A DNA stretch of 64,000 nucleotides from Candidatus Latescibacterota bacterium (GCA_965205975.1 OZ242195.1:896001-960000); one strand, 5' to 3'. Positions 3,196 to 33,226 are shown, counted from the first letter of the stretch. Made by a program: numbers and translations. Notes: a model not told the origin generated them from the letters alone.

Positions 3196-5838
3196 ATGGC
3201 GACACAACTGACACCGGCGATGGAACAGTACGCGCGTTTTAAGGAGCAGCATCCGGATGCGATTTTGCTGTTTCGGATGGGCGATTTTTACGAGACGTTT
3301 TACGACGATGCCGTTGTTGCATCTCAGCTTTTGGGATTGACGTTGACATCGCGTAACAATGGGCGTGCAGATCGCATCCCACTGGCAGGTGTTCCGTATC
3401 ACGCGCTGGATACCTATCTCGCAAGGCTTATCAAAGCCGGTAAAAAAGTGGCGATTTGCGAGCAGATGGAGCCGCCGCAAAAGGGCAAAAAAGTGGTGCG
3501 CCGCGAGGTGGTGCAGGTTGTATCGCCGGGAACGGTAATGTCCGATGATTTGCTCGATCAAAAGCGCAATAATTATCTTGTGGGCATTTATGTTTCTGAC
3601 GATCAATTGGGCATGGCAACAGCGGATTTGTCAACGGGAATGTTCAGGGCATCGGAACGCGCGGCAGATGATTTGTGGGAGATATTGGAGCGCGTGGCTC
3701 CCGCAGAGGTGCTGGCGCCCGAGGCGTGGGTCAAAGACAACGAAGCCGAGTTTGAAGCGCGGATGCCGGGTGCTTTGCTCACGCATATAGAAGATTGGCA
3801 TTTTGGACAGCATTATGCGTACGATACACTGAAGGATCATTTCAAGGTGGCGTCTCTCAAGGGCTTTGGATGCGATGATCTCACCGTTGGGATATGCGCC
3901 GCGGGCGGGGTGCTGTGTTATTTGCGCGAAAATCAAAAGGGAGCCGTATCCCATATTACGCGATTGGCGCGCGAACACACCGAGTCGGTGATGGAATTGG
4001 ATCTGGTGACACAGCGCAATCTGGAACTGGTTACAACCATTCAAGAGGGGCGGCGCGAGGGTACGTTGTTTGGGGTTTTAGATCAGACGTGTACGCCGCA
4101 GGGCGCGCGGACACTGCGCACATGGCTATCACAACCGCTTGTGGATGTTGGTCGCATTGATGCGCGCTTAGATGCAGTACAAGAATTTGTCGAATCTGCG
4201 GCGTGTCGGGACGAGGCGCGAGAGGCGTTGCGCGGTGTTGGAGACATGGAGCGGTTGATGTCCCGAATTTGTTGCAATCGGGCCAATCCACGTGAGCTTG
4301 TGGCTCTCCAGCGGTCTCTGGAAGCAGTTGTTCCACTGCGAGAAACCCTGCGTGAATTTCGCGCTGATTTGCTGGTGCGGGCGCGGGATCAGGGCATGCC
4401 GGATCTGACAGAGTTGATTGATTTGATTGCCCACACGCTTGAAGACGATCCACCTGCGCAGATTAGCGATGGCGGATATATTAGAACGGGCTATCACAAG
4501 GAACTGGACGAGTTACGGGAAATCGCATCGGGCGGGCGCGATTGGGTTGCCAACTTGCAGGCAGATGAACGCGAGAAAACGGGTATTGCGTCGTTGAAGG
4601 TGGGGTATAACAAGGCATTTGGATACTATATTGAGGTCACCAAGGCCAATCAGGATAAGGTGCCCGCGTATTTTGTTCGGAAGCAAACGCTGGTCAATGC
4701 CGAGCGGTATATCACGCCGGAGTTGAAGGATTGGGAGGCGAAAATTTTGGGCGCAGATGAGCGGGCCAGGGATCTCGAGCGCGATTTGTTTGCCGCGTTG
4801 CGAGAAGAGGTAGCCGGTTGGGTGGAGCCCGTGCAGCGCACGGCGCTATCCGTGGCCACCGTAGATGTGTTGAGCACACTGGCCGAGGTGGCATCGTCCA
4901 ATGATTATGTGCGTCCCCAGGTGGATAATAGCGTGCGTATTGATGTGAAGGATGGGCGACATCCCGCGGTTGAGCAGTTGCTTCCGGGCGGGCAGTTTGT
5001 GCCCAATGATCTGACGATTGACGGCGAGAAAGATCAAATTTTGCTGATTACTGGCCCAAATATGTCGGGGAAATCGACGATTTTGCGCCAGACCGGGTTG
5101 ATTGCGCTTTTGGCGCAGGTCGGCAGTTTTGTGCCAGCGCGCGAGGCGCGTATTGGGGTGGTGGATCGCATTTTTACACGGGTGGGCGCATCCGATAATC
5201 TGGCGCGGGGCGAGAGTACGTTTTTGGTGGAGATGAATGAGGCGGCGAATATTTTGAATAATGCGACGCCGAAGAGTCTGGTGCTTTTGGACGAGATCGG
5301 GCGCGGGACGAGTACGTTTGACGGGTTGAGCATTGCCTGGGCTATGACGGAGTATTTGCACAATGCCGAACAGATTCAGCCGCGGACGTTGTTTGCAACG
5401 CATTATCACGAGTTGACAGAGTTGGAAGATTTGCTGCCGCGGGTGGTGAATTACAGCGTTGCTGTGCGCGAGGCGGGCGATACCATCGCGTTTTTACACA
5501 AGTTGGTGCCGGGCGGGTGCGATCACAGCTACGGCATTGAGGTGGCGCGTCTGGCCGGGATGCCAGCAGAGATGATTGCGCGGGCAAAGGAGATTTTGAA
5601 TCGGCTGGAGCAGAACGATCTGTCGGTGGGGTCAAAACCCCAACCCGATCGCGTGAGGGAGAATGGGCAGATGCCGCTGTTTGCGCCGGTAGAAGAAGTG
5701 AAGGTTGAGCGGGAAGATCACCCGATGCTGTCTGAGTTGCGCGATTTAGATATCACACATCTCACACCGGTTGAGGCGCTGGTAAAATTAGATGGGTGGA
5801 AGCGGGCGTTGATACAGGAATCACAACATGGCTCTTGA
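3196..5838 (+). CDS. mutS: DNA mismatch repair protein MutS
   Basis: FRMGDFYE mismatch-binding motif, Walker A TGPNMSGKST, STFLVEM, DEIGRGTST, FATHYHEL. Confidence 0.98.
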   Translation: MATQLTPAMEQYARFKEQHPDAILLFRMGDFYETFYDDAVVASQLLGLTLTSRNNGRADRIPLAGVPYHALDTYLARLIKAGKKVAICEQMEPPQKGKKVVRREVVQVVSPGTVMSDDLLDQKRNNYLVGIYVSDDQLGMATADLSTGMFRASERAADDLWEILERVAPAEVLAPEAWVKDNEAEFEARMPGALLTHIEDWHFGQHYAYDTLKDHFKVASLKGFGCDDLTVGICAAGGVLCYLRENQKGAVSHITRLAREHTESVMELDLVTQRNLELVTTIQEGRREGTLFGVLDQTCTPQGARTLRTWLSQPLVDVGRIDARLDAVQEFVESAACRDEAREALRGVGDMERLMSRICCNRANPRELVALQRSLEAVVPLRETLREFRADLLVRARDQGMPDLTELIDLIAHTLEDDPPAQISDGGYIRTGYHKELDELREIASGGRDWVANLQADEREKTGIASLKVGYNKAFGYYIEVTKANQDKVPAYFVRKQTLVNAERYITPELKDWEAKILGADERARDLERDLFAALREEVAGWVEPVQRTALSVATVDVLSTLAEVASSNDYVRPQVDNSVRIDVKDGRHPAVEQLLPGGQFVPNDLTIDGEKDQILLITGPNMSGKSTILRQTGLIALLAQVGSFVPAREARIGVVDRIFTRVGASDNLARGESTFLVEMNEAANILNNATPKSLVLLDEIGRGTSTFDGLSIAWAMTEYLHNAEQIQPRTLFATHYHELTELEDLLPRVVNYSVAVREAGDTIAFLHKLVPGGCDHSYGIEVARLAGMPAEMIARAKEILNRLEQNDLSVGSKPQPDRVRENGQMPLFAPVEEVKVEREDHPMLSELRDLDITHLTPVEALVKLDGWKRALIQESQHGS

Positions 5839-6178
5839 AACGAGAATGACCATACCCGACATTCACAAAAAAATTGAGGAAATGGCACAGCGTCTGGTTG
5901 AACAATTTAACCCAGATAAAATTGTCCTTTTTGGCTCTTATGCCAGAGGTGATGTGGGGATAGATAGCGATGTAGATTTGCTGGTGGTCAAACCCATTGT
6001 TGGCTCTAAGCGCGAAGCACGCATTGCCATGCGAATGGCCGTTAGGGGACTGGGGATCGCAAAAGATATTGTGTTGGCTACCCCTGAAGACATAGCAAAA
6101 TATCAAAATGTGGTTGGCACAGTCATTCGATCCGCGCTGAATGAGGGAAAGGTCTTGTATGAACGCGCCGAATCATAG
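5828..6178 (+). CDS. Minimal nucleotidyltransferase (MNT) antitoxin
   Basis: LFGSYARG...SDVDLLVV motif; adjacent HEPN gene. Confidence 0.9.
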   Translation: MALETRMTIPDIHKKIEEMAQRLVEQFNPDKIVLFGSYARGDVGIDSDVDLLVVKPIVGSKREARIAMRMAVRGLGIAKDIVLATPEDIAKYQNVVGTVIRSALNEGKVLYERAES

Positions 6179-6566
6179 TAAAGAGGTTGCAAAACAGTGG
6201 GTGGAAAAAGCAGAGGAGGATTTTCGCAATGCAGAATATACCCTCACGATGCCCCAAAATTGTCCCTATAGCACAGTCTGTTTTCATTGTCAACAGTGTG
6301 TAGAAAAATATATCAAAGCTATGTTGGTCTTACATGAGGTAGAATTTCCACGGATTCACGACATTGGCGAGTTGATCGGATTGCTGCCCGAAAATATGCC
6401 CTTATCACTTACGGACGAAGAACAAGAACGATTATCGGATTATGCAGTTATGGTTCGATATCCAATGGAGGTAGAACCAATTACTGAGTCTGATGCAAAG
6501 AGCGCACTTCTCATTACCAAACGCGTTCGAGCAGTTGCCCGACAATTGATGCAAAAGATATTTTGA
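6159..6566 (+). CDS. HEPN domain protein (MNT-HEPN toxin)
   Basis: W..KAEEDF..A, CFHCQQCVEKYIKA, HDIGEL, YAVMVRYP; overlaps the MNT gene end. Confidence 0.9.
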   Translation: MNAPNHSKEVAKQWVEKAEEDFRNAEYTLTMPQNCPYSTVCFHCQQCVEKYIKAMLVLHEVEFPRIHDIGELIGLLPENMPLSLTDEEQERLSDYAVMVRYPMEVEPITESDAKSALLITKRVRAVARQLMQKIF

Positions 6567-6599
6567 TACACATAACCGCCAAGAGAAATTTTTTTATAC

Positions 6600-6667
6600 T
6601 CACATATCTCACGTCTGTTGAGGCACTGGTAAAATTAGATGCGTGGAAGCGGGCGTTGGAAGAATGA
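6600..6667 (+). repeat. Diverged direct copy of the mutS 3' end
   Basis: 6600-6658 aligns to 5753-5811 with 6 mismatches in 59 bp; reads TYLTSVEALVKLDAWKRALEE* versus mutS THLTPVEALVKLDGWKRAL... Confidence 0.92.
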
Positions 6668-6683
6668 TCAGGAGATAGATGAA

Positions 6684-7187
6684 ATGGCAACTGTTGATTT
6701 GAGGACGGAAGCAAAACAGATTCTCGATAAGCTCTCCGATGAGAGTTTAGAGGTGGTAATCAGTTTGCTGAGTTCTCTCAAAAACCGAGAGTGCCCCAAA
6801 CGGACGGATCTGTTGTCAATCTATCCGTGGGTTCAGTATCTGTCCGATGCGGAATGCGATGAATTTTTCGAGGAACTCTCAAATGCCGCAAAGGACAATG
6901 GTACAGGTGTTGATGAAGTGGTCAACGCCTGGCGGGAGACAGCAGAAATCCTATCTGACCCTGACACGATGGCCGACATTGCCGAATCGGAAAAACAAAT
7001 TGCAGATAGCGAGAGTCGTCTGGAAAACACTGCGCCCGAGATTGATTGGCTTGATACCGAATACATGGAAAAGGCACGAACAGAAGCCGACGATTCAATT
7101 ACCCTCGGATTAGTGCGAAAAGCACTCGCCAAAATTCCAGGCTCAATGAGCGACTTCATCATCTCTGAGCGCGAGGATCGCGTTTAA
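6684..7187 (+). CDS. Putative antitoxin (composite), partner of the downstream PIN toxin
   Basis: RBS AGGAG; AWRETAEILSDP..MADI resembles a Phd/YefM C-terminus; stop overlaps the PIN start. Confidence 0.65.
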   Translation: MATVDLRTEAKQILDKLSDESLEVVISLLSSLKNRECPKRTDLLSIYPWVQYLSDAECDEFFEELSNAAKDNGTGVDEVVNAWRETAEILSDPDTMADIAESEKQIADSESRLENTAPEIDWLDTEYMEKARTEADDSITLGLVRKALAKIPGSMSDFIISEREDRV

Positions 7188-7654
7188 TGGTCGTGTACTA
7201 TCACGATACCAGTGCATTGGTGAAGCACTACCACGAGGAAATAGGCACGGCAGTTGTTGACCAGATTATATCCGTACCAAACAACAGCCACTACCTCTCC
7301 CGGCTTGCAGGTATCGAACTTCGGTCAGCTTCAGCAAAAAATGTCAGGATGGATCTCATCACAGTAGTAGATTTTCATAACTTGCATGGAAAGTTTCAGG
7401 CCGATATCAGGAATGGCCAGTTTCAGATTCTCCACTTGCTGTCGAGACACCTTCAGAAGGCTGAAAACCTGATTATACAACACGCGACCACGAACAGCTT
7501 ACGAACATTGGATGCCATTCAACTCGCTGTCGCCCTCGATTTTCATCAACGGCACAGACTCGATTTTTTTGTATGTGCCGACGCGAATCTGTGCATGGTT
7601 GCAATAGCTGAAGGTTTAGCTGTTATAAATCCAGTGACGCATACTCCTGAATAA
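7187..7654 (+). CDS. vapC: PIN-domain (VapC-type) toxin
   Basis: YHDTSALVKHYHEE...LRTLDAIQLAVA...FVCADANL motifs. Confidence 0.88.
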   Translation: MVVYYHDTSALVKHYHEEIGTAVVDQIISVPNNSHYLSRLAGIELRSASAKNVRMDLITVVDFHNLHGKFQADIRNGQFQILHLLSRHLQKAENLIIQHATTNSLRTLDAIQLAVALDFHQRHRLDFFVCADANLCMVAIAEGLAVINPVTHTPE

Positions 7655-8005
7655 AGGGGATTATGTAGTTAAGTGACCAAAATTACCCTAAGAAAAAGAG
7701 GCATAGAGGACAAACCTGAGCTTAGGTACAGTATTTTTGTACCAAGGAGGGCGGTGTGCTACGTCTGGGCGAACTTTGGCGAGTCTCTCAGAGCAGTAGC
7801 ACACGGCAATCCGCCAGAACAACCACACAGAAAGAGGTCTTTCTATGCACAGATATTCATAGCGGATGAATGAGAGGAATGATGATGTTAAGTAAGGAGA
7901 TCAGTCCGAAAAAGGGGACTGCTAAGTAAAGAAACACAATGACCTGTGTCAAGAATTTTTTGCAAGGAGGAATGGTGTGAAAAAACATTATTGGATTTCT
8001 ATTAT

Positions 8006-9369
8006 CAATACTGTGAACAGTTTTAAGCGGCGCGTGCGCCATAATCCTTAAGGGATTGATATTCAGGTCGTTTTTTGATGCAAGTGTGCTCCAACCCGAA
8101 GATGCGAATAATTCGATTGAGATAATGTTGATTGAATGCCCTGATTTTCACACTGCCCATAGAGAAGCGATGCACGCCGTCCTTCTTTTTCGCGTTGAGG
8201 CATTCAGATTTGGCCAAATTTAAGGTGGTCAAAGACGCATTAAAATGAAAGTCGAGGCGTGCCTGATCCCGTGCTTGAGAATCGGCCAGACCTGTAAACT
8301 GTTTGGCATCGCGGAAGAGAAACTCTATTTGGAAGCGTGCTTTGTAATAGCGATAGACCTGCCAAGCATCGAGTGTCTCATCTGTAGAAAAGAGAATCAC
8401 ATAGCAGGGTGTTTCGCCTTCTGCTTGTTTGAGCAGGACAACGACTTTGAGATTGCGGTTAAATGAGATATGGTTGAGCAGCCCGCTATAAAGGGTCAGG
8501 TCATCCTCTTGGCCTACAAAGTCAAATCGGGACAGGTCTTGCCAATTGACCTTGCCATCATAAGTTTTCTGTCGTCCTCTGCCTGGTCTTTTGGGTCCTT
8601 TGTATAAATAGCGACAGTTGGCATCACATCGCAGTTTGCCTACAATATCCTTGTTCAAGGCGGTGATGCCGTCAATAAAATCGGCATTGGCAAAGCTGCC
8701 ATCCACGACGATATAGTGTTCACACGCAGCCAAATGGGGTGCCACCTTGCCGATATGGTCAAGATATTGTTGCATTCTTGTCGTATGCACATCTTTGTCC
8801 TTACCATGAGCCTCTTGACCCTTTCTTTTGGCTTCTTCTTGCGAGAGGGTCTGTTCGACAGACAAGGTCAGTGCCGTATGCTTTTTTATATCTACGACGG
8901 CTAACGCTGAAATTTCTAACCCTTTTTGTGCCTTTGAAGCACATCCGTTCCAAAACGCATCGCGTGAGAAGGTGTGCTTGCCTGCTTTTTTGATGAAACT
9001 GGGATCAAAGGCCAGGATGCGGTCACTTTCTTCTCCAAAGGTTTCATCAATCACCTGCCGATTAAATCGGATAAAGTCAAATGGCTTAGCAAAGTTGCGA
9101 GAATAGGTATGCTCACACAAATCACTATACCGACTCATATTGCGAAAGTTGATCTTCCCGCGTGTGACGAGAATCGTTGTAAAAAGGGTCAACAGAAATT
9201 TCTTTTGCGGTTTGGATATTTTTATGCGATTGAGTATCTTTATTGCCAGTTCCATTGTGCCGTCTCTCCAGATGTGGGGTATCTTTGACTTGGGCGTTTA
9301 AGACACCTTAAATCTGCGTGAACGGCACTTTTTTGTCAAAACTTCTATCTTTTTTTGTTCACAGTATTG
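8006..9369 (-). mobile_element. Complete insertion sequence (IS4/IS701-like DDE)
   Basis: Perfect 14-bp TIR CAATACTGTGAACA (8006-8019) / TGTTCACAGTATTG (9356-9369); 5-bp TSD ATTAT at 8001-8005 and 9370-9374. Confidence 0.93.
8023..9255 (-). CDS. DDE transposase
   Basis: AFDPSF, VVDGSF, and Y..R..IE..FR..KQ (YREK) motifs. Confidence 0.93.
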   Translation of the reverse strand: MELAIKILNRIKISKPQKKFLLTLFTTILVTRGKINFRNMSRYSDLCEHTYSRNFAKPFDFIRFNRQVIDETFGEESDRILAFDPSFIKKAGKHTFSRDAFWNGCASKAQKGLEISALAVVDIKKHTALTLSVEQTLSQEEAKRKGQEAHGKDKDVHTTRMQQYLDHIGKVAPHLAACEHYIVVDGSFANADFIDGITALNKDIVGKLRCDANCRYLYKGPKRPGRGRQKTYDGKVNWQDLSRFDFVGQEDDLTLYSGLLNHISFNRNLKVVVLLKQAEGETPCYVILFSTDETLDAWQVYRYYKARFQIEFLFRDAKQFTGLADSQARDQARLDFHFNASLTTLNLAKSECLNAKKKDGVHRFSMGSVKIRAFNQHYLNRIIRIFGLEHTCIKKRPEYQSLKDYGARAA

Positions 9370-10442: not shown

Positions 10443-10565
10443 TTAAAATTTTACTGCATCAAATCTGTCTGTCCTCGGCACAGGCTTGTCTGCGTATCCG
10501 TGCAAAAGGTCTTTGAGAAATTGTGCTGTAATCGCATAGACATCGTGATCGAGAAATAACCTCAT
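10443..10565 (-). pseudogene. Truncated DUF5615 (PIN-like) toxin
   Basis: ATGA overlap with DUF433; MRLFLDHDVYAITAQFLKDL then unrelated sequence and a stop after 40 aa. Confidence 0.7.
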
Positions 10566-10807
10566 CGCGCCTCTGAAATATGAATATCTCCCACCTGCAC
10601 TAAGTTAATCGCATAATGGATACAAGCGCGAATGTCGTCTTCTTGAAGGTCAGGAAAATAATCAGAGAGGATCGTCTTAAACGAGATTCCCTCACGCACC
10701 AATTCGAGAACATCAACCACGGGGATCCGGGTTCCTGCTACACAAGGCTTACCAAAATGAATTTGGGGATCAACCGCAATCCTACCTCGATAATTTCCAT
10801 TTTCCAT
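10562..10807 (-). CDS. DUF433 family antitoxin
   Basis: RIAVDPQIHFGKPCVAGTRIPV..VLE....G....IL.DYFPDL..DDIRACI.YA. Confidence 0.9.
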   Translation of the reverse strand: MENGNYRGRIAVDPQIHFGKPCVAGTRIPVVDVLELVREGISFKTILSDYFPDLQEDDIRACIHYAINLVQVGDIHISEAR

Positions 10808-10942
10808 ATCGCTTAGACTCCAATTTAACGATGCACGATGAATAATATTTCAACCAGGAAAGTACCGTATAAAAAGAAAAAAGTCAATTTTCTCGCCAAG
10901 GCAGATAGGGGTAGGCGGTAGAACAGGGATAGAGATAAAAAT

Positions 10943-11185
10943 TTCAGTGACTATTCACTTCAGTGACTATTCACTACTAATCCCGTGTTCGTCGAGCCAG
11001 GTTTTGAGGGGAACGTCTTCGGGAGTGGGGAGGTGTAGCCGCGACCACCGGAGTAGCTGACGCCGAGGAGTTGTTTTTGGATGGGCGTGCAGTGGTCGAG
11101 ATAGTGTTCAACTCGCATGTCGTCGCGGGGGCGAAGCCAGTGGTAGGAGTAGCCGTAGAAGAGGACGCGGCGGGGGTCTTGCCAG
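10943..11185 (-). repeat. Copy A of the PhyH gene 3' end (218 bp, 1-bp deletion) with a 16-bp tandem duplication at its stop
   Basis: 10967-11184 aligns to 14415-14633; TTCAGTGACTATTCAC is repeated at 10943-10958 and 10959-10974. Confidence 0.95.
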
Positions 11186-11248: not shown

Positions 11249-11611
11249 CTACGGAGATGCAATCAGCGGTTCTATCTCCCGCTCAATTTGGCGACGTACC
11301 GTGTGCTCGGCGACATCGAGATCGTAGCGGGTCTGAAGATTGATCCAGAACTCAGGCGTCATGCCAAAGTAGTGACCAAGGCGTAGCGCGGTATCGATTG
11401 TAATTCCATTAATTCCATGCACGATAGCGTCTAAGTCCTCCTCCGAAACTTTGATCCCCTGAGCAAGGCGAGCCACACTGAGATTCATCGGAATAAGGAA
11501 CTCATCGCGCAGGATTTCACCAGGATGTACCGGAGATAGTAGCTGTCCGGTTGTGACTTCCGAGAAGTCAACTTTTCGCCGGTCCAGTTCTTCGCGTTTA
11601 ACGGTCATCAT
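11249..11611 (-). CDS. higA: HigA-family antitoxin (orphan)
   Basis: PVHPGEILRDEFL.P..LS...LA, ITIDTALRL..YFG.TPEFWINLQ..YDL; no higB adjacent. Confidence 0.9.
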   Translation of the reverse strand: MMTVKREELDRRKVDFSEVTTGQLLSPVHPGEILRDEFLIPMNLSVARLAQGIKVSEEDLDAIVHGINGITIDTALRLGHYFGMTPEFWINLQTRYDLDVAEHTVRRQIEREIEPLIASP

Positions 11612-11623: not shown

Positions 11624-11682
11624 ACTATTCACTACTAATCCCGTGTTCTTCGAGCCAGGCTTTGAGAGACACGTCTTCGGGA
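11624..11682 (-). repeat. Copy B of the PhyH gene 3' end (59 bp)
   Basis: ACTATTCACTACTAATCCCGTGTTCTTCGAGCCAGGCTTTGAG..GTCTTCGGGA aligns to 14414-14472. Confidence 0.9.
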
Positions 11683-11718: not shown

Positions 11719-13275
11719 TCATGCAAGAGCTGTCTCGAACCCTATCAGATTGCGGGTCTCGCGGCTGAACTCTACCCCGATCATAAAAATCGGCTCGCCC
11801 AAGTCGCGGTATTTGTCCGCATAGCCCTTTGCCTGCAATTGCGCCATTGCAGACCCTTCCGGTGCCAATTCCACCACTTTGAACTCGAACAGATACACAG
11901 TGTCGTTGAAACGAACCACCATGTCCAGACGCCCATCGCTGCCACTGTCTTCCACAACGATGTCGAATCCCACCGATGCGAAGTAGGAGTAGAACACGCT
12001 GGCATAGTAGCCTTCGTAGTTCGCTATATCATTGTTTGTGTGCCACTGATAGGGAATGCTGGCGAAAAACGCCTTGAACAGGCTTTCCAGGCCAGCGAAG
12101 TCATTGACCAGCAGCAGGTCATACAGACGGGCGCGATGCTCCGTGCGCTGTGAGGGATCGCCAGTCAGGTGATTTAGCAGGCTCCTGTTCAAGCTCTGAC
12201 GCACTTCCCGATTCGGATAGGATAGCCGATAATACATCTCGCCACCGCGCGGTTCGGTTTGGATAATCGTGAGATAGCCGGTCTGGAACAGCAGGGCTTC
12301 GGTGGCGATGTGGTCAACATCAAAAGCCGACAGCAAATCATCACTGCCCAGCATGTTGTCCAGCGCCAGCGCACCGACCCCGCGCGATAGTAGCGTCTCG
12401 ATCAGAAATGTAGGCGTGCCGGTCTCAAACCAGTAGGCTTCGAAGCTCTGCCTTCTGAACAGCAGGAGGATGTCGAAGGGGTTATAGACCTTCTCCTGTC
12501 CCCGCCAGCTATAGCCATTGTACCAGTCGCGGATCTCATCCCTGTCCAGACCCGGCAGTTCCGGTGCGAACACCGTGTCGAGGTCCTCCTCGGTGTAGCC
12601 GCAGATGGCGGAATATTGTGGATCAATGGTGATGTCTGTAAGATTGTTGAGGCCAGAGAACAGGCTGACTTTGGAGAATTTGCTGACGCCCGTGAGGAAT
12701 GTGAATTTGATATAGGCATCACTGGACTTGATGGTTGAATACAGACCGCGCAGAAAATCGCGGTTGGCGCGTGCGACCTCTGGCACCTCAAGCGCGTCCA
12801 GAATCGGCTTGTCGTATTCATCAACAAGCACGACAACACGCTGTCCAGCACAATCGTGCAATGCCTCAATCAGTGAGGCAAAACGCCCCGGTGCTGTCAC
12901 GGCCTCTGTAACCACTCCAGAGCGGTTTTCAATGGCGGTCAGTTGCTCCATCACATTTGCCTGCAAGTAGTCAGGCTCTTTGAAATTGCCGCTGCCAAAA
13001 TCGAGTCGCACAACGGGATAGCGAACAGACCAGTCCCAGTGGTCATGGATATGAAGCCCCTCAAACAGCGGTTCATTGCCCTCGAACAGTTCCTTCAGTG
13101 TGTCCAGAAACAGGCTTTTGCCAAAGCGACGTGGACGCGATAAAAAGTAGTGTGTGCCCTCGTCTATCAGTCGCCGCATGTGGACCGTTTTATCGACATA
13201 GTAGCAGTTTTCCTCCCGAATTTTACGGAAGGTCTGAACGCCGATAGGCAGCTTGCATCTGTCTGATATGCCCAT
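11719..13275 (-). CDS. AAA-ATPase-like protein with C-terminal PD-(D/E)XK nuclease (DUF1703/PDDEXK_9 type)
   Basis: LPIGVQTF..IR, YVDKT, SRPRRFGKS, VDEYDKP, FETGTP, GRLD...FEFK motifs. Confidence 0.93.
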   Translation of the reverse strand: MGISDRCKLPIGVQTFRKIREENCYYVDKTVHMRRLIDEGTHYFLSRPRRFGKSLFLDTLKELFEGNEPLFEGLHIHDHWDWSVRYPVVRLDFGSGNFKEPDYLQANVMEQLTAIENRSGVVTEAVTAPGRFASLIEALHDCAGQRVVVLVDEYDKPILDALEVPEVARANRDFLRGLYSTIKSSDAYIKFTFLTGVSKFSKVSLFSGLNNLTDITIDPQYSAICGYTEEDLDTVFAPELPGLDRDEIRDWYNGYSWRGQEKVYNPFDILLLFRRQSFEAYWFETGTPTFLIETLLSRGVGALALDNMLGSDDLLSAFDVDHIATEALLFQTGYLTIIQTEPRGGEMYYRLSYPNREVRQSLNRSLLNHLTGDPSQRTEHRARLYDLLLVNDFAGLESLFKAFFASIPYQWHTNNDIANYEGYYASVFYSYFASVGFDIVVEDSGSDGRLDMVVRFNDTVYLFEFKVVELAPEGSAMAQLQAKGYADKYRDLGEPIFMIGVEFSRETRNLIGFETALA

Positions 13276-13387: not shown

Positions 13388-13609
13388 TGACTATTCACCA
13401 CTGATCCCGTGTTCGTCGAGCCAGGTTTTGAGGGGCGCGTCTTCGGGGGTGGGGGAGGTATAGCCGCGTCCACCGGAGTAGCTGACGCCGAGGAGTTGTT
13501 TTTGGATGGGTGTGCAGCAGTCGAGATAGTGTTCAACTCGCATGTCGTCGCGGGGGCGAAGCCAGCGGTAAGAGTAGCCGTAGAAGAGGACGCGGCGGGG
13601 TTCTTTCCA
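13388..13609 (-). repeat. Copy C of the PhyH gene 3' end (219 bp, frame intact)
   Basis: 13391-13609 aligns to 14415-14633 with 19 mismatches; reads WKEPRRVLFYGYSYRWLRPRDDMRVEHYLDCCTPIQKQLLGVSYSGGRGYTSPTPEDAPLKTWLDEHGISGE*. Confidence 0.96.
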
Positions 13610-13652: not shown

Positions 13653-13991
13653 TCACTGATGCCGTATCTGAATTGTCCAAATTCCAGACGGCAAACTATC
13701 CCAAGCCATAACGCTACTGGCGACAAATTCGGCTTTCACTGAATCTGGCACATCGCTGTGAATACGAAACAAGATGACGCCGTGAGGGGCGGACATACCG
13801 TCACGATGCACAAGGTCTCCAAAGTCCTTATCATACGTTATCAGCGCACGTCTTTCCCGCGTTGCCAATTCCAGCAGGTTGGGGTCTGCTTCGCCCCGGT
13901 CCGTTTCCTTCGTCCATCGCACATCCTGGCCTGCAGCACGTAGCCGGACAACGACCTGCTCCGATATATTTTCGTCGGCAAGTATTCTCAT
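13653..13991 (-). CDS. DUF5615 PIN-like toxin
   Basis: MRILADENI...LRAAGQDV...D..LL..A..E.R.LIT.DKDFG motif. Confidence 0.9.
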   Translation of the reverse strand: MRILADENISEQVVVRLRAAGQDVRWTKETDRGEADPNLLELATRERRALITYDKDFGDLVHRDGMSAPHGVILFRIHSDVPDSVKAEFVASSVMAWDSLPSGIWTIQIRHQ

Positions 13992-14261
13992 CTACCGTTT
14001 GCCATCCATAATCGCATCAATATCCTCCCAAGTCACATTGGACAGCTTTGCACCAGTAGCGGCGTATTTTCGACAGGCTCGGATATCCTCCGGGGTGATG
14101 TGCGAGTACATACGAATGATATCGGCTTCACTGCGCCCCCCGTCCAGCAATTCCATGATCAGTTCCACCGAAATCCGAGTGCCTTTTATTGTTGGTTTCC
14201 CGGCCAGTATCAACGGGTCAGTGACAATGCGATTCTGCCAGATTGGATTCTTATTTATCAT
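13992..14261 (-). CDS. DUF433 family antitoxin
   Basis: RIVTDPLILAGKPTIKGTRISVE; RBS AGGAGG. Confidence 0.92.
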   Translation of the reverse strand: MINKNPIWQNRIVTDPLILAGKPTIKGTRISVELIMELLDGGRSEADIIRMYSHITPEDIRACRKYAATGAKLSNVTWEDIDAIMDGKR

Positions 14262-14414: not shown

Positions 14415-15260
14415 CTATTCACTACTGATCCCGTGTTCTTCAAGCCAGGCTTTGAGGGGCGCGTCTTCGGGAGTGGGGGAGGTGTAGCCTCGACCACCGG
14501 AGTAGCTGACGCCGAGGAGTTGTTTTTGAATGGGCGTGCAGCGGTCGAGATAGTGTTCTACCTGCATGTCGTCGCGGGGGCGAAGCCAGCGATAGGAGTA
14601 GCCGTAGAAGAGTACGCGGCGAGGTTCCTTCCAGTAGTTGGTACTGGCGGAGTGCCATAAGCGGCGGTCAAAAAACACGGCTGATCCAGGGGGTACGAGC
14701 ACCGGGATAGCGTCTTTGTGTAGCGCGTTGCGGTCTTCTCCGGGAAATGTGTTTTGCGTTTGGCTCTTGGGAAGGACGTAGAAATTGCCGCGGCCCTGCT
14801 CAGTCGTGTCGGTAAGAAAAAAGCCGATTTTGAGGGAGATCATGGGACGCGGGTTCATGTCAAAATCCTGATTGATGCGGCCGCTGTCTTGATGGAAGCC
14901 GAGTCCGGGTCCGTCTTTTTCGAATGTTTTGTGCGGTTCTGCAGGGGGTGTCACGGTCATGTGGGTGTGGTAGAGTTGGATGTGCCAGCCCAGGATGCCC
15001 CACACTTTGGGGAATGTTTTGTACCAGTCGAGCAAGGGCAAAAAGTGGTCGTCTTTGCCTATGAAGTCGTAGTGGTTGATGCGCGCTGTGGCACTTTTGC
15101 CCATCCGAGCGCGTTCTTCTTTATCCACGCGATCTACTGCGGCGACGAGATCGCTGACCATATCGGGTGGTAGGGCATCTGGAACGATGAAATAGCCATC
15201 TCGTTTGAATTTGCGCGCTTCTTCTTCTGTCAGACAATAATCGAGACATTTGGGGTGCAT
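14415..15260 (-). CDS. Phytanoyl-CoA dioxygenase (PhyH) family Fe(II)/2OG oxygenase
   Basis: F..DGYFIVPDAL, HQD facial-triad motif, distal WHSA. Confidence 0.9.
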   Translation of the reverse strand: MHPKCLDYCLTEEEARKFKRDGYFIVPDALPPDMVSDLVAAVDRVDKEERARMGKSATARINHYDFIGKDDHFLPLLDWYKTFPKVWGILGWHIQLYHTHMTVTPPAEPHKTFEKDGPGLGFHQDSGRINQDFDMNPRPMISLKIGFFLTDTTEQGRGNFYVLPKSQTQNTFPGEDRNALHKDAIPVLVPPGSAVFFDRRLWHSASTNYWKEPRRVLFYGYSYRWLRPRDDMQVEHYLDRCTPIQKQLLGVSYSGGRGYTSPTPEDAPLKAWLEEHGISSE

Positions 15261-25609: not shown

Positions 25610-25619
25610 TGCATCTCCT

Positions 25620-26657: not shown

Positions 26658-26703
26658 TTTTTACCTCGCTGTGTTGTCGTTATTTTAAGGGGTGCAGAAA
26701 CTG

Positions 26704-26732: not shown

Positions 26733-26765
26733 TTAGCAAATGAATCGGTCACGGTAGCGCTGCCA

Positions 26766-28076: not shown

Positions 28077-28078
28077 GG

Positions 28079-29431
28079 TTAATCTTGTCCTTTTTTAAAA
28101 CGCAAATTTTTGACCCGGTTTCCCGTCAGTCTGAATCCTGTAACTTGTCCCGTATCGTCTCGCGTAAAATAAACTTCTGGGAAAAACCACGCATCTCCGA
28201 CGAAATGGCCGTCGGCACAGGTTAGGGATATGTCGTCATGTCGCCTGTGTTGCGCCACAAGCCGGTCTCCTTGCACACCAATGGTATAGGTCGTATCGAG
28301 TTCTTCAGTGTAATAATCGCCTTCGAATTCTGACAACTGTTCTGGCGATAGGGGTTCGGCTTCGTTGCTTTCAGAGGGTTGCTTATCCGGCTCGGGTGCT
28401 TCGGGCGCAAGGACATCAGCGAGATAGAGATCAGCGATCTTTTTCGCCAAATTAAGCGGATTAAAGGTCTCCAGATTGCACAATATGACAATGCCAAATT
28501 TCTGAGCCGGAAAACGTATGAGATGGCTGCGAAATCCCCGCCATGATCCGCCGTGTCCGGCCGTTTTCAGTGCTCTGTACTCGCCGATGTCCAATCCAAA
28601 GGCGTAACTGATCTGTTTCCCATTATTGAGAACCCCTCGCTGATGCATCTGCTCAACCACTACCTGTCCACCTACCCGTGTATTATCAAAGTTCAGAACC
28701 CACTTTGCCAGATCTTCTACCGTTGAATGGAGAGAACTCGAACCGAGGGCGGTTAAATTGTTCACTGCATTCTTGAATCCATTATCTTTCACGGACAAAT
28801 AGGAATACGCCCGGTTTTTCACAATCATCTCGTGGTCATCGTGAAAGTGGGTGTTGGTCATGGCGAGGGGCTTAAAGATGTTGGCATTCGTCCATTCGCG
28901 AAATGAATCTCCCGTTATTTTTTCGACGATTTCTGCCAGCAGATTATACCCCGTATTTGAGTATAAGAACGCTGTTCCAGGCTCGAAATTGAGTTCTTTC
29001 TGACGCCTTACCATTTTCAAAATATGCTTAAACGAAATCACGTCATCCATCTCTCCGCCCGCGATGACGAGTGCCTGTACCCAATCCCGCAAGCCACTCG
29101 TGTGATGCACCAGATGTCGAATCGTTATTTTTTTTCCAAAATCCGGGACATCGGGCAAGTGCGTCCGAATGTCGTCATCCAGCGAGAGTTTCCCTTCGTG
29201 CAACAACGTGGCGATGGCAAAGCCCGCAAATTGCTTGGAGACCGAAGCAATGTCGAAGATGGTTGTCGGCGCAATCGGGATGTCGTATTCCAGATTCGCC
29301 ATACCGTATCCGCATTTGTAGATAATTTCACCGTCTCTGATAACCGACAGAGCCGCGCCAGGGGAATCTGGCTTGTCCCATTCCGCGAATACCTGATCAA
29401 CTTTTGCCTCAAGTGACTCGTGATTTGTCAT
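28079..29431 (-). CDS. Serine hydrolase (beta-lactamase class C / D-aminopeptidase-like)
   Basis: ASVSKQF (SxxK), HTSG, YSNTGY, HGGS. Confidence 0.92.
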   Translation of the reverse strand: MTNHESLEAKVDQVFAEWDKPDSPGAALSVIRDGEIIYKCGYGMANLEYDIPIAPTTIFDIASVSKQFAGFAIATLLHEGKLSLDDDIRTHLPDVPDFGKKITIRHLVHHTSGLRDWVQALVIAGGEMDDVISFKHILKMVRRQKELNFEPGTAFLYSNTGYNLLAEIVEKITGDSFREWTNANIFKPLAMTNTHFHDDHEMIVKNRAYSYLSVKDNGFKNAVNNLTALGSSSLHSTVEDLAKWVLNFDNTRVGGQVVVEQMHQRGVLNNGKQISYAFGLDIGEYRALKTAGHGGSWRGFRSHLIRFPAQKFGIVILCNLETFNPLNLAKKIADLYLADVLAPEAPEPDKQPSESNEAEPLSPEQLSEFEGDYYTEELDTTYTIGVQGDRLVAQHRRHDDISLTCADGHFVGDAWFFPEVYFTRDDTGQVTGFRLTGNRVKNLRFKKGQD

Positions 29432-29544
29432 TGGTCACCTTCTATTGCCAAATTTTTCGCAAGGCCACTGAAGGGGCCCTTTACGGCGAAGTCCTTAAAG
29501 GGAAAACATAAAGTGCATACCATAGATATTTGTCTTTTTCAGAT

Positions 29545-30558
29545 TTATAAACGCAGGATTTTCAGGAAAAGTTCATCTGCTCCTTTGATTTCTCGGAAAT
29601 AGGGATGCTTACTTTTTAATGAAAGTAAATTCGCATAGGCTCGAAACAGCCACTCACCCTCAATTTTTTCAAAGAGCTTGTAATGAATTCCATTCGAGAC
29701 AATGAAAAAACAGCAAGTTGGATAGTTTTGTAAATAATCCTTTGCCTGATCGGGAGCATACCGAAGTCCATCGTATAGCCGTTTAGTTTCGAGGATTATT
29801 ACAGGATTCTCTTGTTCTGATGGAAACGGACTCTCAAAGATCGAAATATCAATTTTCTTCCACTCTATTCTGATTCTCTGTTCAGGAAACCCCAATGCAA
29901 TCAGGAGTGGGACTATTAGAAATGTCCTAATCTCATGCTCTCCAAATTCCCTATTCTGAGAGACGTACCACTTTGCCAGTCTACGAATTTTCCAAATCGT
30001 CTTTGTGATTATGTCAACATCGTTCCCGGATAAGCCATTGACCATTAAAAGGTCAATCAGTTGTTCGGCTTCTAAATCCTCAACTAACTCCGGAATTCGT
30101 TCTGATTGTACAGCTACACCATTTTCCCATATATTTTGCGCTTCATTCCTTGGAGTTTGCTTCTTGACTTGAAACAACGTACCTTGTCTCAAACCAGAGA
30201 TTATTGTCGAATCAGCAGGCCGTTTCCACTTTACTTCCCTACAATGTTGAAGAGCCCATCCATCAACCTCTTCGAATACTTCTGTATGGAAATAATCTGA
30301 TCTAACTTTCCCTACTGCCACAATTTTCCACTGTTTTCCACATGCCCTTTTCAAAATCACCAAATCCCCAGTCTGCATGTCTTCCATGAACCACCTATAG
30401 AATTGTCTATAATCGCAGTGGGATTTATCATCATAAATATCTCGATTTTCAAAATAATCTCCGTGAGAACCAGGGCCAACAAGTATGACTCCAAATCTCA
30501 AAAATACGTCAGAATATTCTCTATTTCCATCACCAGCGGCGATTTGCCAAATGTTCAT
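29545..30558 (-). CDS. Putative restriction-endonuclease-like protein (N-terminal PUA/EVE-like region, C-terminal HsdR_N-like PD-(D/E)XK)
   Basis: AT-rich; E..IR..LI.PLL.ALG, IDI...ILETK, QA..Y, SNG..Y. Confidence 0.65.
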   Translation of the reverse strand: MNIWQIAAGDGNREYSDVFLRFGVILVGPGSHGDYFENRDIYDDKSHCDYRQFYRWFMEDMQTGDLVILKRACGKQWKIVAVGKVRSDYFHTEVFEEVDGWALQHCREVKWKRPADSTIISGLRQGTLFQVKKQTPRNEAQNIWENGVAVQSERIPELVEDLEAEQLIDLLMVNGLSGNDVDIITKTIWKIRRLAKWYVSQNREFGEHEIRTFLIVPLLIALGFPEQRIRIEWKKIDISIFESPFPSEQENPVIILETKRLYDGLRYAPDQAKDYLQNYPTCCFFIVSNGIHYKLFEKIEGEWLFRAYANLLSLKSKHPYFREIKGADELFLKILRL

Positions 30559-30585
30559 TTTGTCACATCCTAAATTAATATTCCC

Positions 30586-30813
30586 TCAAACAGATTCTGA
30601 TGCATATTTGGCTTTGCGAGGCAGTTCGACGAGGATGAAATAGGATGCGGGATATAAGTAGTCTTCCTGTGATTCATCTACGACTCTCAAATATCCCTCT
30701 TGCGCTGCTTCTTCGTCGGGCAGAATCTGGTATATCTTCCGCTTCTCCAGATCGTCGCAATCTCTGTTCTCGATACACAGCGCGAATTGAGATTTTGATA
30801 GGTTCTCTTTCAT
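30586..30813 (-). CDS. Small conserved hypothetical protein (copy 2), putative TA component
   Basis: FALCIEN....DLEKRKIYQ..PD..A...GYLRVVDES.EDYLYP; near-identical to 32443-32667. Confidence 0.75.
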   Translation of the reverse strand: MKENLSKSQFALCIENRDCDDLEKRKIYQILPDEEAAQEGYLRVVDESQEDYLYPASYFILVELPRKAKYASESV

Positions 30814-30815
30814 TT

Positions 30816-30967
30816 TTACCACTCCATGAATCGTTTGATTTTCATCTTTCTTCGACCAATTCCATGCACCTCATACCAATGGTCCTCTGCCCGTCGGATA
30901 CTGCTATTGCTGAGGCGAATACGGGCAATACCTTTGAGTTTTCGTCACCGGCCAGATCATATTGCCT
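30816..30967 (-). pseudogene. 3' fragment of the partner gene of the 30586 protein
   Basis: GR*RKLKGIARIRLSNSSIRRAEDHWYEVHGIGRRKMKIKRFMEW*; 5' end missing, internal stop. Confidence 0.6.
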
Positions 30968-31053
30968 ACGAAGCCGACATCATTGATTACACCTCGATTT
31001 GAGCCGGTTTTGGAACCCTAGCGATAGGTCTTGGAGGTCGGCACATATCGGCC
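30968..31053 (-). repeat. Copy of a 3'-proximal segment of the class-A serine hydrolase gene
   Basis: 86 bp aligning to 31752-31837 with 5 mismatches (4 synonymous, 1 Trp to stop). Confidence 0.93.
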
Positions 31054-31316
31054 TAACTCGCAACTGATTTCCCTCGTATGTGCTCAATTAAACGAACATT
31101 CACCAGGGTTTCGATCGATACGCCTTGTGCTTGGGCACTCTGCCAGAGTTCTTCTGCTATTTCAGGGAGTATCGCAACGCGAACTGCTCGCTTGTGTGGC
31201 GTATCAAAGCGAAACCATTCTCCATCATCTTCCATAAAATCAGCCGTATCCAGTTGATCCCAAAATGTAGCTTCCTCTTCATAACTCTCGAATTTTGGGA
31301 CTTTTAACTCTTTCAT
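31053..31316 (-). CDS. CopG/BrnA-like antitoxin
   Basis: VPKFESYEEEA.FWD..D..D, C-terminal ribbon-helix-helix-like segment. Confidence 0.8.
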   Translation of the reverse strand: MKELKVPKFESYEEEATFWDQLDTADFMEDDGEWFRFDTPHKRAVRVAILPEIAEELWQSAQAQGVSIETLVNVRLIEHIRGKSVAS

Positions 31317-31585
31317 TTTCTCAGCCTCCTGAAGTTTTGTTTTTCACGGTCGGTCATATCTCGAGCGGTAATGGGCTTATAGACTGTACCGCTAAGATGT
31401 TCCAAGACGACAAATAGATACCGCCCATCCGCTGTCTGTCCATAAAGCCGATACCGGTTACGTCCTTGACGACGAGCTAAATGTAATGGATCCCCACAAA
31501 CTTCCCAGACTTCATCTGGTTCCACATTGTGTTGAGCAATATGTTCAATTCGATAGTCGTCCCAAGCTAATCTGCTAATATACAT
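31313..31585 (-). CDS. BrnT-family toxin
   Basis: WD...IEHI..H.V...EV.EV, G.T..GRYLFVV, ITARDM...EK. Confidence 0.85.
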   Translation of the reverse strand: MYISRLAWDDYRIEHIAQHNVEPDEVWEVCGDPLHLARRQGRNRYRLYGQTADGRYLFVVLEHLSGTVYKPITARDMTDREKQNFRRLRK

Positions 31586-31627
31586 GTATCACTCGTGATT
31601 TTTTTATTTTATTTGAAACTGTTAGTC

Positions 31628-32419
31628 CTATATCACGCCCGTCACTTGCATCGCGGCCCTGGCAATCTCGGAGAGTGCGCATTCGCCGGTGACGCGATCG
31701 CCGAGTTCCCGGCTGTAGAGAGCAATCACCATCGTTCCTACCGGGGATTCGACGAAGCCGACATCATTGATTACACCCCGATTCGAGCCGGTTTTGGAAC
31801 CCCATCGATAGGTTTTGGAGGTCGGCACATATCGGCCGATGCGGCGACCGTTCTGTTGTAGGGTCAAGGTGGTGAGCATGGCCTGACAGGCTGCGGGGGA
31901 TGCGGCCTGGTCGTCGAGAATCGTCTTGACGACGGTAGTGTAGTCATTGGGTGTAGCCCAATTTTCCTGTTCTCCTTCAATCGCGAGACGCCCGCGCATG
32001 GGACGTCCGAGATTGGAGGCGGTCATACCGAGTTCTCGCATTGTCGCGTTGATGCGATCCATTCCAGCCACTTCAATCAATATGTTGGTGGCGGTGTTAT
32101 CGCTGATGGACATCATCAAGTAGAGGAGATCTCCAAACGACAGTTGCAACCCGGTATGCATATGTCGCAGCACACCACTGCCGGGAGATTTATCCACAGA
32201 GCGGATGATATATGTGTCGTCAAGCGCCAGTGTGCCGCGATCAATAGCTCTGTAGATCTCGATCATGATCGGAATTTTAACTGTGCTGGCCGCTGGAAAC
32301 TGATGATCACCCCGTGAAGCCCAACGCTCTCCCTGAGGTGAAATTACACTGACGCCGATCATGCCGGGTGATTCGTGCTCTTTAACCGTTTGTTCTAGCT
32401 TGCTCCAGTCTGTGGTCAT
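31628..32419 (-). CDS. Serine hydrolase, class-A beta-lactamase-like (Beta-lactamase2)
   Basis: ASTVK (SxxK), SDN, KTG, NDVG; no signal peptide; start MTTDWSK. Confidence 0.9.
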   Translation of the reverse strand: MTTDWSKLEQTVKEHESPGMIGVSVISPQGERWASRGDHQFPAASTVKIPIMIEIYRAIDRGTLALDDTYIIRSVDKSPGSGVLRHMHTGLQLSFGDLLYLMMSISDNTATNILIEVAGMDRINATMRELGMTASNLGRPMRGRLAIEGEQENWATPNDYTTVVKTILDDQAASPAACQAMLTTLTLQQNGRRIGRYVPTSKTYRWGSKTGSNRGVINDVGFVESPVGTMVIALYSRELGDRVTGECALSEIARAAMQVTGVI

Positions 32420-32442
32420 GGTAACGTTCCTGAAACTCAGTC

Positions 32443-32667
32443 TCAGTTTGCCAGTGCGTCTTTGGCTTTGCAAGGCAGTTCGACAAAGATAAAATAAGAT
32501 GCGGGATACAAGTAGTCTTCCCACGATTCGTCAATGACTCTCAAATATCCCTCTTGCGCTGCTTCTTCGTCGGGTAAAATCTGGTATATTTTCCGCTTCT
32601 CCAGATCGTCGCAATCTCTGTTCTCGATACACAGCGCGAATTGAGATTCTGATGGGTTCTTTTTCAT
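32443..32667 (-). CDS. Small conserved hypothetical protein (copy 1)
   Basis: Near-identical to 30586-30813. Confidence 0.75.
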   Translation of the reverse strand: MKKNPSESQFALCIENRDCDDLEKRKIYQILPDEEAAQEGYLRVIDESWEDYLYPASYFIFVELPCKAKDALAN

Positions 32668-32668
32668 T

Positions 32669-32899
32669 TCAGGCATGCAGTTCTACATCCATAGTCTCTG
32701 GCGTATCCACTAAGATGGAAAACCCGAACCGCGGCAGCAATTCCTCGAATACACGGCGAGAGATCCCGAGCGTGAGGCACGCTTCTTTCTCTGAGAGTTT
32801 TCCTACGTGGTAGAGTGTTGCAATCAAGGCTTCTCTGAAATACGCCTGGTCGAGGCGAGCAAGCGCAGCCGTGTCAGGTAAGTCTAAAGAGATTTTCAT
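32669..32899 (-). CDS. UPF0175 family protein (putative antitoxin)
   Basis: LY..GKLS...A...LGISR..FEELL..FG. Confidence 0.8.
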   Translation of the reverse strand: MKISLDLPDTAALARLDQAYFREALIATLYHVGKLSEKEACLTLGISRRVFEELLPRFGFSILVDTPETMDVELHA

Positions 32900-32913
32900 T
32901 GTATGCCCATTGT

Positions 32914-33102
32914 TTATGAAGTGACCAACTCCTTACATGCATAAATATCTTCTTGAGTTAGTGAAGGATATTCTGCGAGGAGATCCTCGACAGTGTCCCC
33001 ATTGGCCAACATCCCCAGGATTAGATGTACCGGGATGCGGGTACCTTTAATACAGGCTTGTCCGTGACAAACCCTGGAATCAATGGCAATACGTTCATGC
33101 AT
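32914..33102 (-). CDS. DUF433 family antitoxin (orphan, short)
   Basis: RIAID..VCHGQACIKGTRIPV..IL..LA.G....LL.EYPSL. Confidence 0.85.
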   Translation of the reverse strand: MHERIAIDSRVCHGQACIKGTRIPVHLILGMLANGDTVEDLLAEYPSLTQEDIYACKELVTS

Positions 33103-33136
33103 TTTTTATTTCCAGTAAAAGGACTTTCACTTCTTA

Positions 33137-33226
33137 CCTATATCAGGCCCATCACTTGCATCGCAACCCTGGCAATCTCGGAAAGTGCGCATTCGCCGGT
33201 GACGCGCTCCCTGAAACTCAGCCTCA
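33137..33226 (-). repeat. Internally deleted copy of the class-A serine hydrolase gene: 5' flank joined to the last 70 bp
   Basis: 33137-33206 aligns to 31627-31696; CCTGAAACTCAGCCTCA (33210-33226) matches CCTGAAACTCAGTCTCA (32429-32445). Confidence 0.88.

Follow-up and report, generated by a model that had tools for sequence, protein, structure and literature searches.

How do toxin-antitoxin (TA) and defence genes arrive at chromosomal hotspots that carry no mobile-element genes? This open question is raised by a stretch of 64,000 nucleotides from a Candidatus Latescibacterota bacterium (GCA_965205975.1 OZ242195.1:896001-960000), called the window below, and the series of site versions described here bears on it. 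In the window, such genes lie beside mutS, a PhyH-family dioxygenase gene and a class A serine hydrolase gene, together with diverged copies of the 3' ends (tails) of those same genes. An earlier note, made from the sequence alone, had read the tails as signs of a candidate new system, in which units of gene tail and cargo are integrated repeatedly by homologous recombination or by a recombinase acting in trans. The explanation that we consider probable, though by no means certain, is that conserved genes received stacked insertions at their 3' ends without an integrase, through recombination of donor fragments that hold a gene end and its cargo.

The window is part of G000 (G000:896001-960000), a single-contig genome of 5.56 Mb that is 98% complete. 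The comparison pool comprised 20 congeneric species, several of them also single-contig genomes. We compared the gap between PhyH and mutS in 15 relatives, whose PhyH orthologues show 92-95% nucleotide identity; with G000 this gives 16 versions of the site. Left out of the 15 were G001, G017 and G018 (PhyH at 83-86%) and G021, with no tail or mutS in the stretch examined; G011 has no close PhyH orthologue, and the sequence of G007 stops at a contig edge. Tail copies were located by BLASTN of the whole window against itself, domains were assigned with Pfam and NCBIfam profiles, and gene calls for genome-wide counts were made in this analysis. The gap in the window holds the following features.

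3196..5838, plus strand: mutS, anchor gene (Pfam MutS I-V; gene end compared in 14 relatives).
5828..6566, plus strand: MNT-HEPN toxin-antitoxin pair, newest cargo at mutS (PF18765/PF01909, PF05168).
6600..6667, plus strand: mutS tail copy (BLASTN match 6600-6658), ending in the empty-site stop.
6684..7654, plus strand: putative antitoxin (weak DUF6247) and PIN toxin, older cargo (Pfam).
8023..9255, minus strand: DDE transposase (PF13546/PF01609, Pfam), in mid-gap and not at a cassette border.
10562..10807, minus strand: DUF433 gene, oldest PhyH-side cargo (Pfam), found behind intact PhyH in G008 and G016.
10964..11185, minus strand: 220-bp copy of the PhyH tail that starts at nt 627 and lacks one base (BLASTN).
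11249..11611, minus strand: HigA antitoxin without its toxin (TIGR02607 above cut-off).
11624..11682, minus strand: PhyH tail copy from nt 789, 58 bp (BLASTN); AAA-to-tail joint identical in G016.
11719..13275, minus strand: AAA-ATPase/PD-(D/E)XK9 nuclease (Pfam), one of 9 full copies in the genome.
13388..13609, minus strand: PhyH tail copy from nt 628, 219 bp (BLASTN).
13653..14261, minus strand: DUF433-DUF5615 (PIN-like) pair, newest cargo at PhyH (Pfam).
14415..15260, minus strand: PhyH-family dioxygenase, anchor gene, convergent with mutS (PF05721).

All six tail copies named in the earlier note exist, at 90-94% identity to the host gene (E 2e-15 to 6e-86). Four are true downstream tails; these, three of PhyH and one of mutS, have the order that the note had described as common to all three loci, namely gene, cargo, tail and further cargo. 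The other two, an internal fragment and a copy upstream of its gene, belong to the hydrolase locus, which fits that order only in part. The claim that the cargo is nearly all TA, restriction-modification (R-M) or nuclease genes holds within the window (MNT-HEPN, PIN, three DUF433, DUF5615, HigA, BrnT-CopG, AAA-PD-(D/E)XK9, a methylase and an HsdR_N-like gene). The exceptions, one DDE transposase and one unknown open reading frame (ORF), both lie in the middle of the mutS-PhyH gap. The claim does not extend to the relatives, whose gap cargo also includes TIR, ankyrin, TPR, peptidase, decarboxylase and insertion sequence (IS) genes. IS genes occur inside some gaps, and none bounds the units of the window. 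The DDE transposase was not found in the PhyH-mutS gaps of the 15 relatives and is a later insertion into the middle of the gap.

Cargo varies at constant anchors, as the note had expected. The PhyH-mutS gap holds the terminator alone in 2 of 15 relatives (G010 and G020) and variable cargo of up to ~12 kb in the other 13. PhyH tails occur in 7 of the 15, and twelve such tails are spread over 8 of the 16 genomes, with aligned lengths of 39-265 bp. Their starts lie 58, 104, 144, 147, 180, 186, 192, 219, 220 or 265 bp before the stop codon. With 10 distinct start points among 12 tails, the two length classes of the note (59-80 and 210-219 bp) vanish across species, and a fixed att site is not indicated. 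mutS tails are present in 3 of 15 genomes; supposed copies in G009 and G015 were rejected, as the gene end there is split by an indel.

Each tail is a former gene end, and the arrays grow on the gene-proximal side. At mutS, the last codons of the gene are unlike those of the empty-site allele and overlap the MNT start, as judged from gene ends in 14 relatives, and the mutS-MNT joint is also found in G008 and G009. The tail ends in the empty-site stop, and the joint that follows it is identical to that behind intact mutS in 7 of 14 relatives. A tail with the old stop and joint, beside a gene with new MNT-fused codons, marks the tail as the earlier end of the gene. On the PhyH side, the empty-site terminator lies behind the outermost tail in all 5 tail-bearing genomes that retain it, so the newest cargo adjoins the gene; it was not found in the other 3 tail-bearing genomes. 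Four downstream states show the same 70 bp behind the intact gene in one species and behind a tail in another, and the AAA-PD-(D/E)XK9 gene sits behind intact PhyH in G009. The stacks reach a depth of three insertions.

The tails are displaced alleles rather than dead self-duplicates. Between each tail and its own gene, 128 codons are changed, 81 synonymously, 45 non-synonymously and 2 by nonsense, and there are 3 indels. The synonymous share is 63%, compared with 34% expected for a dead self-duplicate and 76% for allele pairs (P = 1e-11 and 1e-3, values that are overstated because the genomes are kin). It is the excess over 34% that points to displaced alleles; most of the divergence thus built up in a different lineage while selection was acting, and some later decay was added.

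In three cases the same cargo-to-tail joint is present in more than one species and in differing array contexts: AAA to nt 789 (G000 and G016), HigA to nt 667 (G003 and G016) and CopG to nt 583 (G000, G006 and G012). HigA starts 14 bp past a PhyH tail stop, and in G016 HigB is present upstream. Both this reuse of joints between species and an integron-like polarity of the arrays are supported. In several species pairs the shared cargo is closer than the anchor (98.2 vs 94.3%, 98.9 vs 95.1% and 96.6 vs 93.7%); other shared cargos are not closer than their anchors. The DUF433-DUF5615 pair of the window is 98% identical to the G003 version, and PhyH itself 94%. Where the continuation of a cargo is visible elsewhere, the position of the cut is arbitrary and in two cases falls inside a gene; at the 6 joints with such a visible continuation, 0-4 nt are shared, as counted by eye. 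A common motif at the left ends of the tails was not found, and the top 5-mers stem from overlapping windows. The mutS tail region is bridged by single contigs in 3 of 4 sequencing runs, as is the cargo-to-tail joint at 13609; of 18 runs with small shares, one was examined.

These observations suggest a course of events in four steps. A rare illegitimate event would join cargo at, or at most ~10 bp from, a stop codon, because this is the only harmless spot in tight gene junctions. A fragment of gene end plus cargo from another strain or species would then enter the cell, probably by transformation; the free cargo end would become attached to a point as much as ~300 bp within the gene, trimming and circularisation being the simplest route, and a single crossover in the common gene end would integrate the fragment. 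The product is the one seen at these sites, a gene with a partly donor-derived end and new cargo adjoining it, with the old end, old cargo and terminator shifted downstream. In a third step, the resulting gene-cargo-tail unit would have its own second homology arm and could spread to other alleles by two crossovers, with resident cargo kept. Lastly, deletions wear down tails and cargo, as is seen in part. Looping out would probably remove such units more slowly where the cargo is addictive and the repeats differ by ~8%. The bias toward 3' ends would be explained most simply if promoters make 5' ends costly and convergent gaps permit tails only. ComEC and DprA are present in the genome.

The serine hydrolase locus brings in the main rival of this scheme. 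The hydrolase gene is present in 13 of 20 congeners, and in the window it is arranged as follows.

29545..30813, minus strand: distal cargo, comprising an HsdR_N-like nuclease and an ORF of 75 aa in its second copy (Pfam, BLASTN).
30968..31053, minus strand: eroded serine hydrolase tail with in-frame stop (BLASTN; nt 583-668 of 792).
31053..31585, minus strand: BrnT-CopG toxin-antitoxin pair (Pfam), whose stop abuts the tail start.
31628..32419, minus strand: anchor gene, serine hydrolase with a class A beta-lactamase fold (under every NCBIfam cut-off shown).
32443..33102, minus strand: DUF433, UPF0175 and a 74-aa ORF (Pfam).
33137..33226, minus strand: collapsed hydrolase copy that lies upstream of the intact gene and consists of its 5' flank and final 72 bp (BLASTN match 33137-33209).
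33224..34776, minus strand: DNA methylase (PF01555) and putative endonuclease, just past the Gfo/Idh/MocA stop.

The copy at 30968-31053 ends 124 bp short of the hydrolase stop and is therefore an internal piece. The BrnT-CopG-to-tail joint is identical in G006 and G012, where the ~210-bp tail is complete (583-791 and 583-788, respectively). The Gfo-hydrolase-beta-lactamase site is empty in 5 of 13 relatives, and in 11 of 13 a distance of 8 bp separates Gfo from the hydrolase gene. The DUF433/UPF0175/74-aa block lies 3' of the hydrolase in G003, G004, G008 and G009 and 5' of it in G000 and G007. No Gfo tail was found beside the methylase/endonuclease pair in G000, and the second ORF of that pair has no Pfam or NCBIfam match. 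Several filled hydrolase-operon sites carry ~16 bp remnants of the end of the upstream gene before the next core gene (seen by eye), from which the duplication length spans a few codons to a whole gene. At 33137..33226, the 5' flank of the gene is joined to its last 72 bp, with short homology at the joint (by eye); this makes the copy, to judge from its sequence, a whole-gene duplicate whose middle was deleted.

Such a copy exactly fits a scenario in which unequal recombination between strains yields a larger tandem duplicate of gene and cargo, and deletions trim the spare to a relic tail that was never a mobile arm. G007 shares the cargo-to-gene-start joint of the hydrolase locus, erosion is seen in the G003 tail and at 30968, and allelic divergence and polarity are likewise predicted. 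This scenario is the main rival and accounts for at least one copy. As an account of the arrays we think it unlikely: no PhyH tail is longer than 265 bp (n = 12), no head or upstream-gene remnant is present in 16 PhyH gaps, and three joints recur in different array contexts.

A second alternative holds that elements whose integrases target gene 3' ends were streamlined to TA genes and eroded att sites, or that a loosely specific XerC-like recombinase acts in trans. Such elements can leave just this anatomy: at icd, e14 is flanked by the gene and an allelic C-terminal pseudogene, icdC, according to the available part of one report (PMC13626634), and streamlining of TA islets is proposed in the accessible text on Photorhabdus (PMC13617665). 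G000 also has an XerC-like gene with its own tail array, and the tail of this gene recurs between AAA and TA genes of relatives. The searches speak against this alternative. Among 51 scanned of 84 called ORFs in the PhyH-mutS gaps of 12 relatives, no tyrosine or serine recombinase was found; the remaining 33 are mostly matches to window genes or overlapping short frames. The closest tyrosine recombinase lies ~615 kb from the window, a full XerC-like gene was found in only 3 other genomes by the search made, and the 10 left ends among 12 tails share no motif. A known integrase with a cognate att core behind all sites, which the note had named as fatal to its proposal, is thus not indicated. Its statement that integrase, attC, tRNA att site and reverse transcriptase are lacking nearby is borne out by profile, pattern and Rfam searches: the best integron integrase score in the genome is 88 bits (TIGR02249, cut-off 265), the 98% complete genome has 0 PF00078 (RVT_1) matches, both arrays have 0 matches to RYYYAAC..GTTRRRY with a 35-130 nt spacer, and no Rfam RNA matches the window. 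We regard involvement of an integrase as improbable. A tRNA-Pro called by ARAGORN at 12991-13071, inside the AAA-nuclease gene, has no Rfam support and is probably false.

We give still less weight to a third alternative, in which the recipient's own target is duplicated during repair of a break made by a cargo nuclease, with no donor allele involved. Cargo is often nuclease-like, and a role for double-strand breakage is suggested in the available text of Furuta et al. (PMC2853133). However, self-duplicates would show a synonymous share of ~34% and 63% is observed, although later replacement of the gene allele could mask the difference, and most cargo encodes RNases or antitoxins; we consider this very improbable. 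Hardly tenable, finally, is the view that the arrays are assembly chimeras of strain haplotypes: an unrelated run, from another study, holds an empty mutS-PhyH joint and a form without MNT-HEPN, which points to mixed populations, and no contig among those examined spans the whole array, but single contigs of three samples (one study, possibly the source of the genome) run from the end of mutS through MNT-HEPN into the tail with 0-1 letters different, tails bear nonsense changes and indels, and 7 of 15 other species show the same anatomy. The arrays are not an assembly artefact.

Repeated homology-driven addition at gene 3' ends with the gene restored, as the note had proposed, is supported, and of a dedicated recombinase or site there is no sign; the mechanism narrows to homology-driven entry of donor gene ends. 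Several observations count against donor gene ends. Larger duplications do get trimmed afterwards, as the whole-gene duplicate at 33137 with its deletion shows. The synonymous share is lower for tails than for allele pairs (63 vs 76%) and the G003 tail has an internal deletion, so that present left ends need not be the original ones. A tree of tails and alleles has 0 starred branches, and common descent, instead of transfer, could account for the shared joints. Of 14 control genomes, 10 likewise have ComEC and 11 have DprA. A circular intermediate was not seen, and no return joint lies at tail coordinates among the 15 of 40 joints listed, contigs being prone to drop rare forms. Head copies upstream of genes also occur: among 178 core genes from five 400-kb blocks, 5 have a total of 9 head copies and 12 have a total of 20 tail copies (P = 0.14). 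Of 59 TA or AAA clusters, only 3 have a tail at a distance of 3 kb or less, and short exact tails show no enrichment next to TA/AAA markers (4/152 vs 46/3710, P = 0.13). Most TA modules thus have no tail, and, with at least one copy left by deletion in a whole-gene duplicate, this weakens the label of a new system.

Genome-wide, a downstream tail copy within 8 kb was found for 20 of 3881 genes of at least 150 aa, a set that includes paralogue remnants and cargo-free copies; among the same genes, 8 have a tail upstream, 6 a head upstream and 5 a head downstream. A second filter gave 19 tail and 3 head genes nearby, and 26 and 7 far away. A TA or AAA marker lies within 3 kb of 5/18 anchors and 147/3844 other genes; with the window excluded, the counts are 3/16 and 136/3800 (P = 0.019), the marker families having been picked after the cargo had been seen. 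A stricter tile scan yielded few tails: the anchor genes numbered 1, 1, 6, 0 and 2 per 400 kb for the five congeners scanned, and two genomes at greater distance had 0 and 1 per 200 kb; its blocks are centred on the hotspot and so give no background rate. The gene-tail pattern is real but confined to hotspots. Among the other anchors in G000 are the genes for a histidine kinase (AAA cargo in antisense), a sulfatase, a MacB permease, a Fic protein and the XerC-like recombinase. Co-orientation of cargo with the host gene, which the note had listed as a feature of the system, is not general, as cargo is antisense at two of the other G000 anchors.

We recorded further features of these genomes in passing. 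G000 carries a large TA load: nine full AAA-PD-(D/E)XK9 copies (74-90% protein identity), 23 DUF433 matches above cut-off and 24 PIN matches. Downstream of dxs (window 50360-55392, minus strand) lie a PIN-DUF433 fusion (437 aa), a DUF433 gene and a Type ISP R-M gene; self-BLASTN of the window shows no tail copy at this block. At G000:2820227-2824268 (L072), an unclassified XerC-like tyrosine recombinase gene is followed by YhcG, AAA-PD-(D/E)XK9 and a 254-bp copy of its own tail. XerC-like fragments, mostly of the 3' end and mostly without a full gene, serve as spacers between AAA and TA genes in the cassette arrays of relatives, whose chromosomal positions differ (L163, L166-L169, L171, L172, L174-L177, L179 and L182), with the order AAA-tail-AAA-tail in L169. 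In the PhyH-mutS gap, CAP12/Pycsar-type TIR effector genes lie on the mutS side in 4 relatives (L031, L036, L039 and L043), and 1357-aa TPR proteins are encoded in 2 (L032 and L039). At 10940-10975, a tandem duplication covers the final 16 bp of the outermost PhyH tail together with the flank, and a short near-palindrome results around the stop codon. A candidate DNA-uptake-like motif was rejected: the most over-represented 10-mers of the genome belong to a dispersed repeat of 1-4 8-bp tandem units (GACGAATA) followed by a C-rich stretch, which forms 110 clusters genome-wide (in the window at ~39531 and ~59411), none at the arrays.

How new is this arrangement? An earlier study of R-M insertion with long target duplication was reportedly published by Nobusato et al. 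in 2000. The accessible part of Furuta, Abe and Kobayashi (2010) describes the insertion of R-M genes, also into operons, where the duplicated target is long and of variable length and other mobile elements are lacking, mostly in competent species; repeats often span the start or stop codon with the gene left intact, relatives have the empty site, and release and reinfection are called unproven (PMC2853133). Integrase-free, variable duplication across a stop codon is thus already in print for R-M genes, and the claim of a new system falls to that extent. The sites described here share the long variable direct repeats (39-265 bp, over the 30 bp of that class), the insert size (gaps to ~12 kb, under 20 kb), an empty site with one repeat copy (G010, G020, 5/13 at the hydrolase and one run) and the lack of a responsible integrase or mobile element. 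They differ in that R and M genes do not occur together in an insert: the units flanked by tails contain TA, AAA-PD-(D/E)XK9 and other genes, and the only R-M-like pair (33224-34776) has no Gfo tail in G000. The arrays therefore work like the R-M class without being members as it is defined. Stacking up to three deep, polarity, cargo that is mostly TA, AAA-PD-(D/E)XK9, TIR and ankyrin genes, and allelic repeats set this case apart; repeats here are ~91% identical, and those in Table 2 of the R-M study match at 44-47 of 46-47 positions or are identical (PMC2853133, as far as its text is available).

A laboratory precedent comes from Escherichia coli, where a non-replicating donor with a lacZ-end fragment gave variable duplication in 56 of 60 recombinants, of 109-950 bp in 14 that were sequenced, ascribed to trimming, recircularisation and a single crossover (PMC3240628, available text). 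A duplicated gene segment of variable length flanks the insert there too, with no integrase, but that case is laboratory conjugation at ~5e-9 with a single insertion, and the accessible part does not present it as natural array-building. Canonical homology-facilitated illegitimate recombination deletes recipient DNA, according to the same text (PMC3240628). Here the recipient end, old cargo and terminator are kept, and 0-4 nt at 6 joints, by eye, compare with an expected microhomology of 3-10 bp. A retrocopy origin would call for a reverse transcriptase, which the genome lacks.

Prophage e14 is a large, integrase-driven element with a fixed site, and phage 21 also sits at icd. Integrons are polar arrays with the newest unit at one end and TA-rich cargo that often has little upstream sequence. 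The arrays resemble integrons in polar addition at one end, but no IntI scores above cut-off, no attC pattern is present and the spacer is coding sequence of the anchor gene. They resemble e14 in the order of gene, insert and diverged C-terminal pseudogene icdC, and excision of e14 recombines its two ends in the portion of the report at hand (PMC13626634); unlike e14, they have no integrase and 10 left ends among 12 tails without a motif, with later erosion possible. Small cassette hotspots between core genes, with erosion, are also described in the available texts on Photorhabdus TA islets (PMC13617665) and Alteromonas additive islands (PMC5217437). The former are proposed to spread through homologous recombination in the core genes on either side, and in their accessible text no duplicated coding tails are described ('direct repeat' has 0 matches; PMC13617665); the additive flexible genomic islands of Alteromonas are ascribed to site-directed recombination (PMC5217437, in part). 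Our literature search, outside which most subscription papers lie, found no published stacked coding-tail arrays with TA cargo for this phylum.

A bolder possibility, doubtful but worth keeping in view, is that gene tail plus cargo units are self-perpetuating, recombinase-free cassettes with real circular intermediates, for which gene ends serve as entry site and spacer, in integron-like arrays traded between species; the tail of the XerC-like gene may act likewise. If true, such cassettes would provide the release-and-reinfection step missing for R-M insertion with long target duplication, a step on which the recurrence of joints across species bears (PMC2853133, as available). Insertion with long target duplication is still without a mechanism, and the 16 site versions (empty, single and stacked) constrain one: the series shows the direction of growth, repeats that are alleles of different lineages, and identical joints in different species. 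Units of this kind are overlooked when genomic islands are sought by their integrases or tRNA att sites. For the organism, these insertions mean that the last codons of core genes, here those of MutS, are rewritten by incoming cargo.

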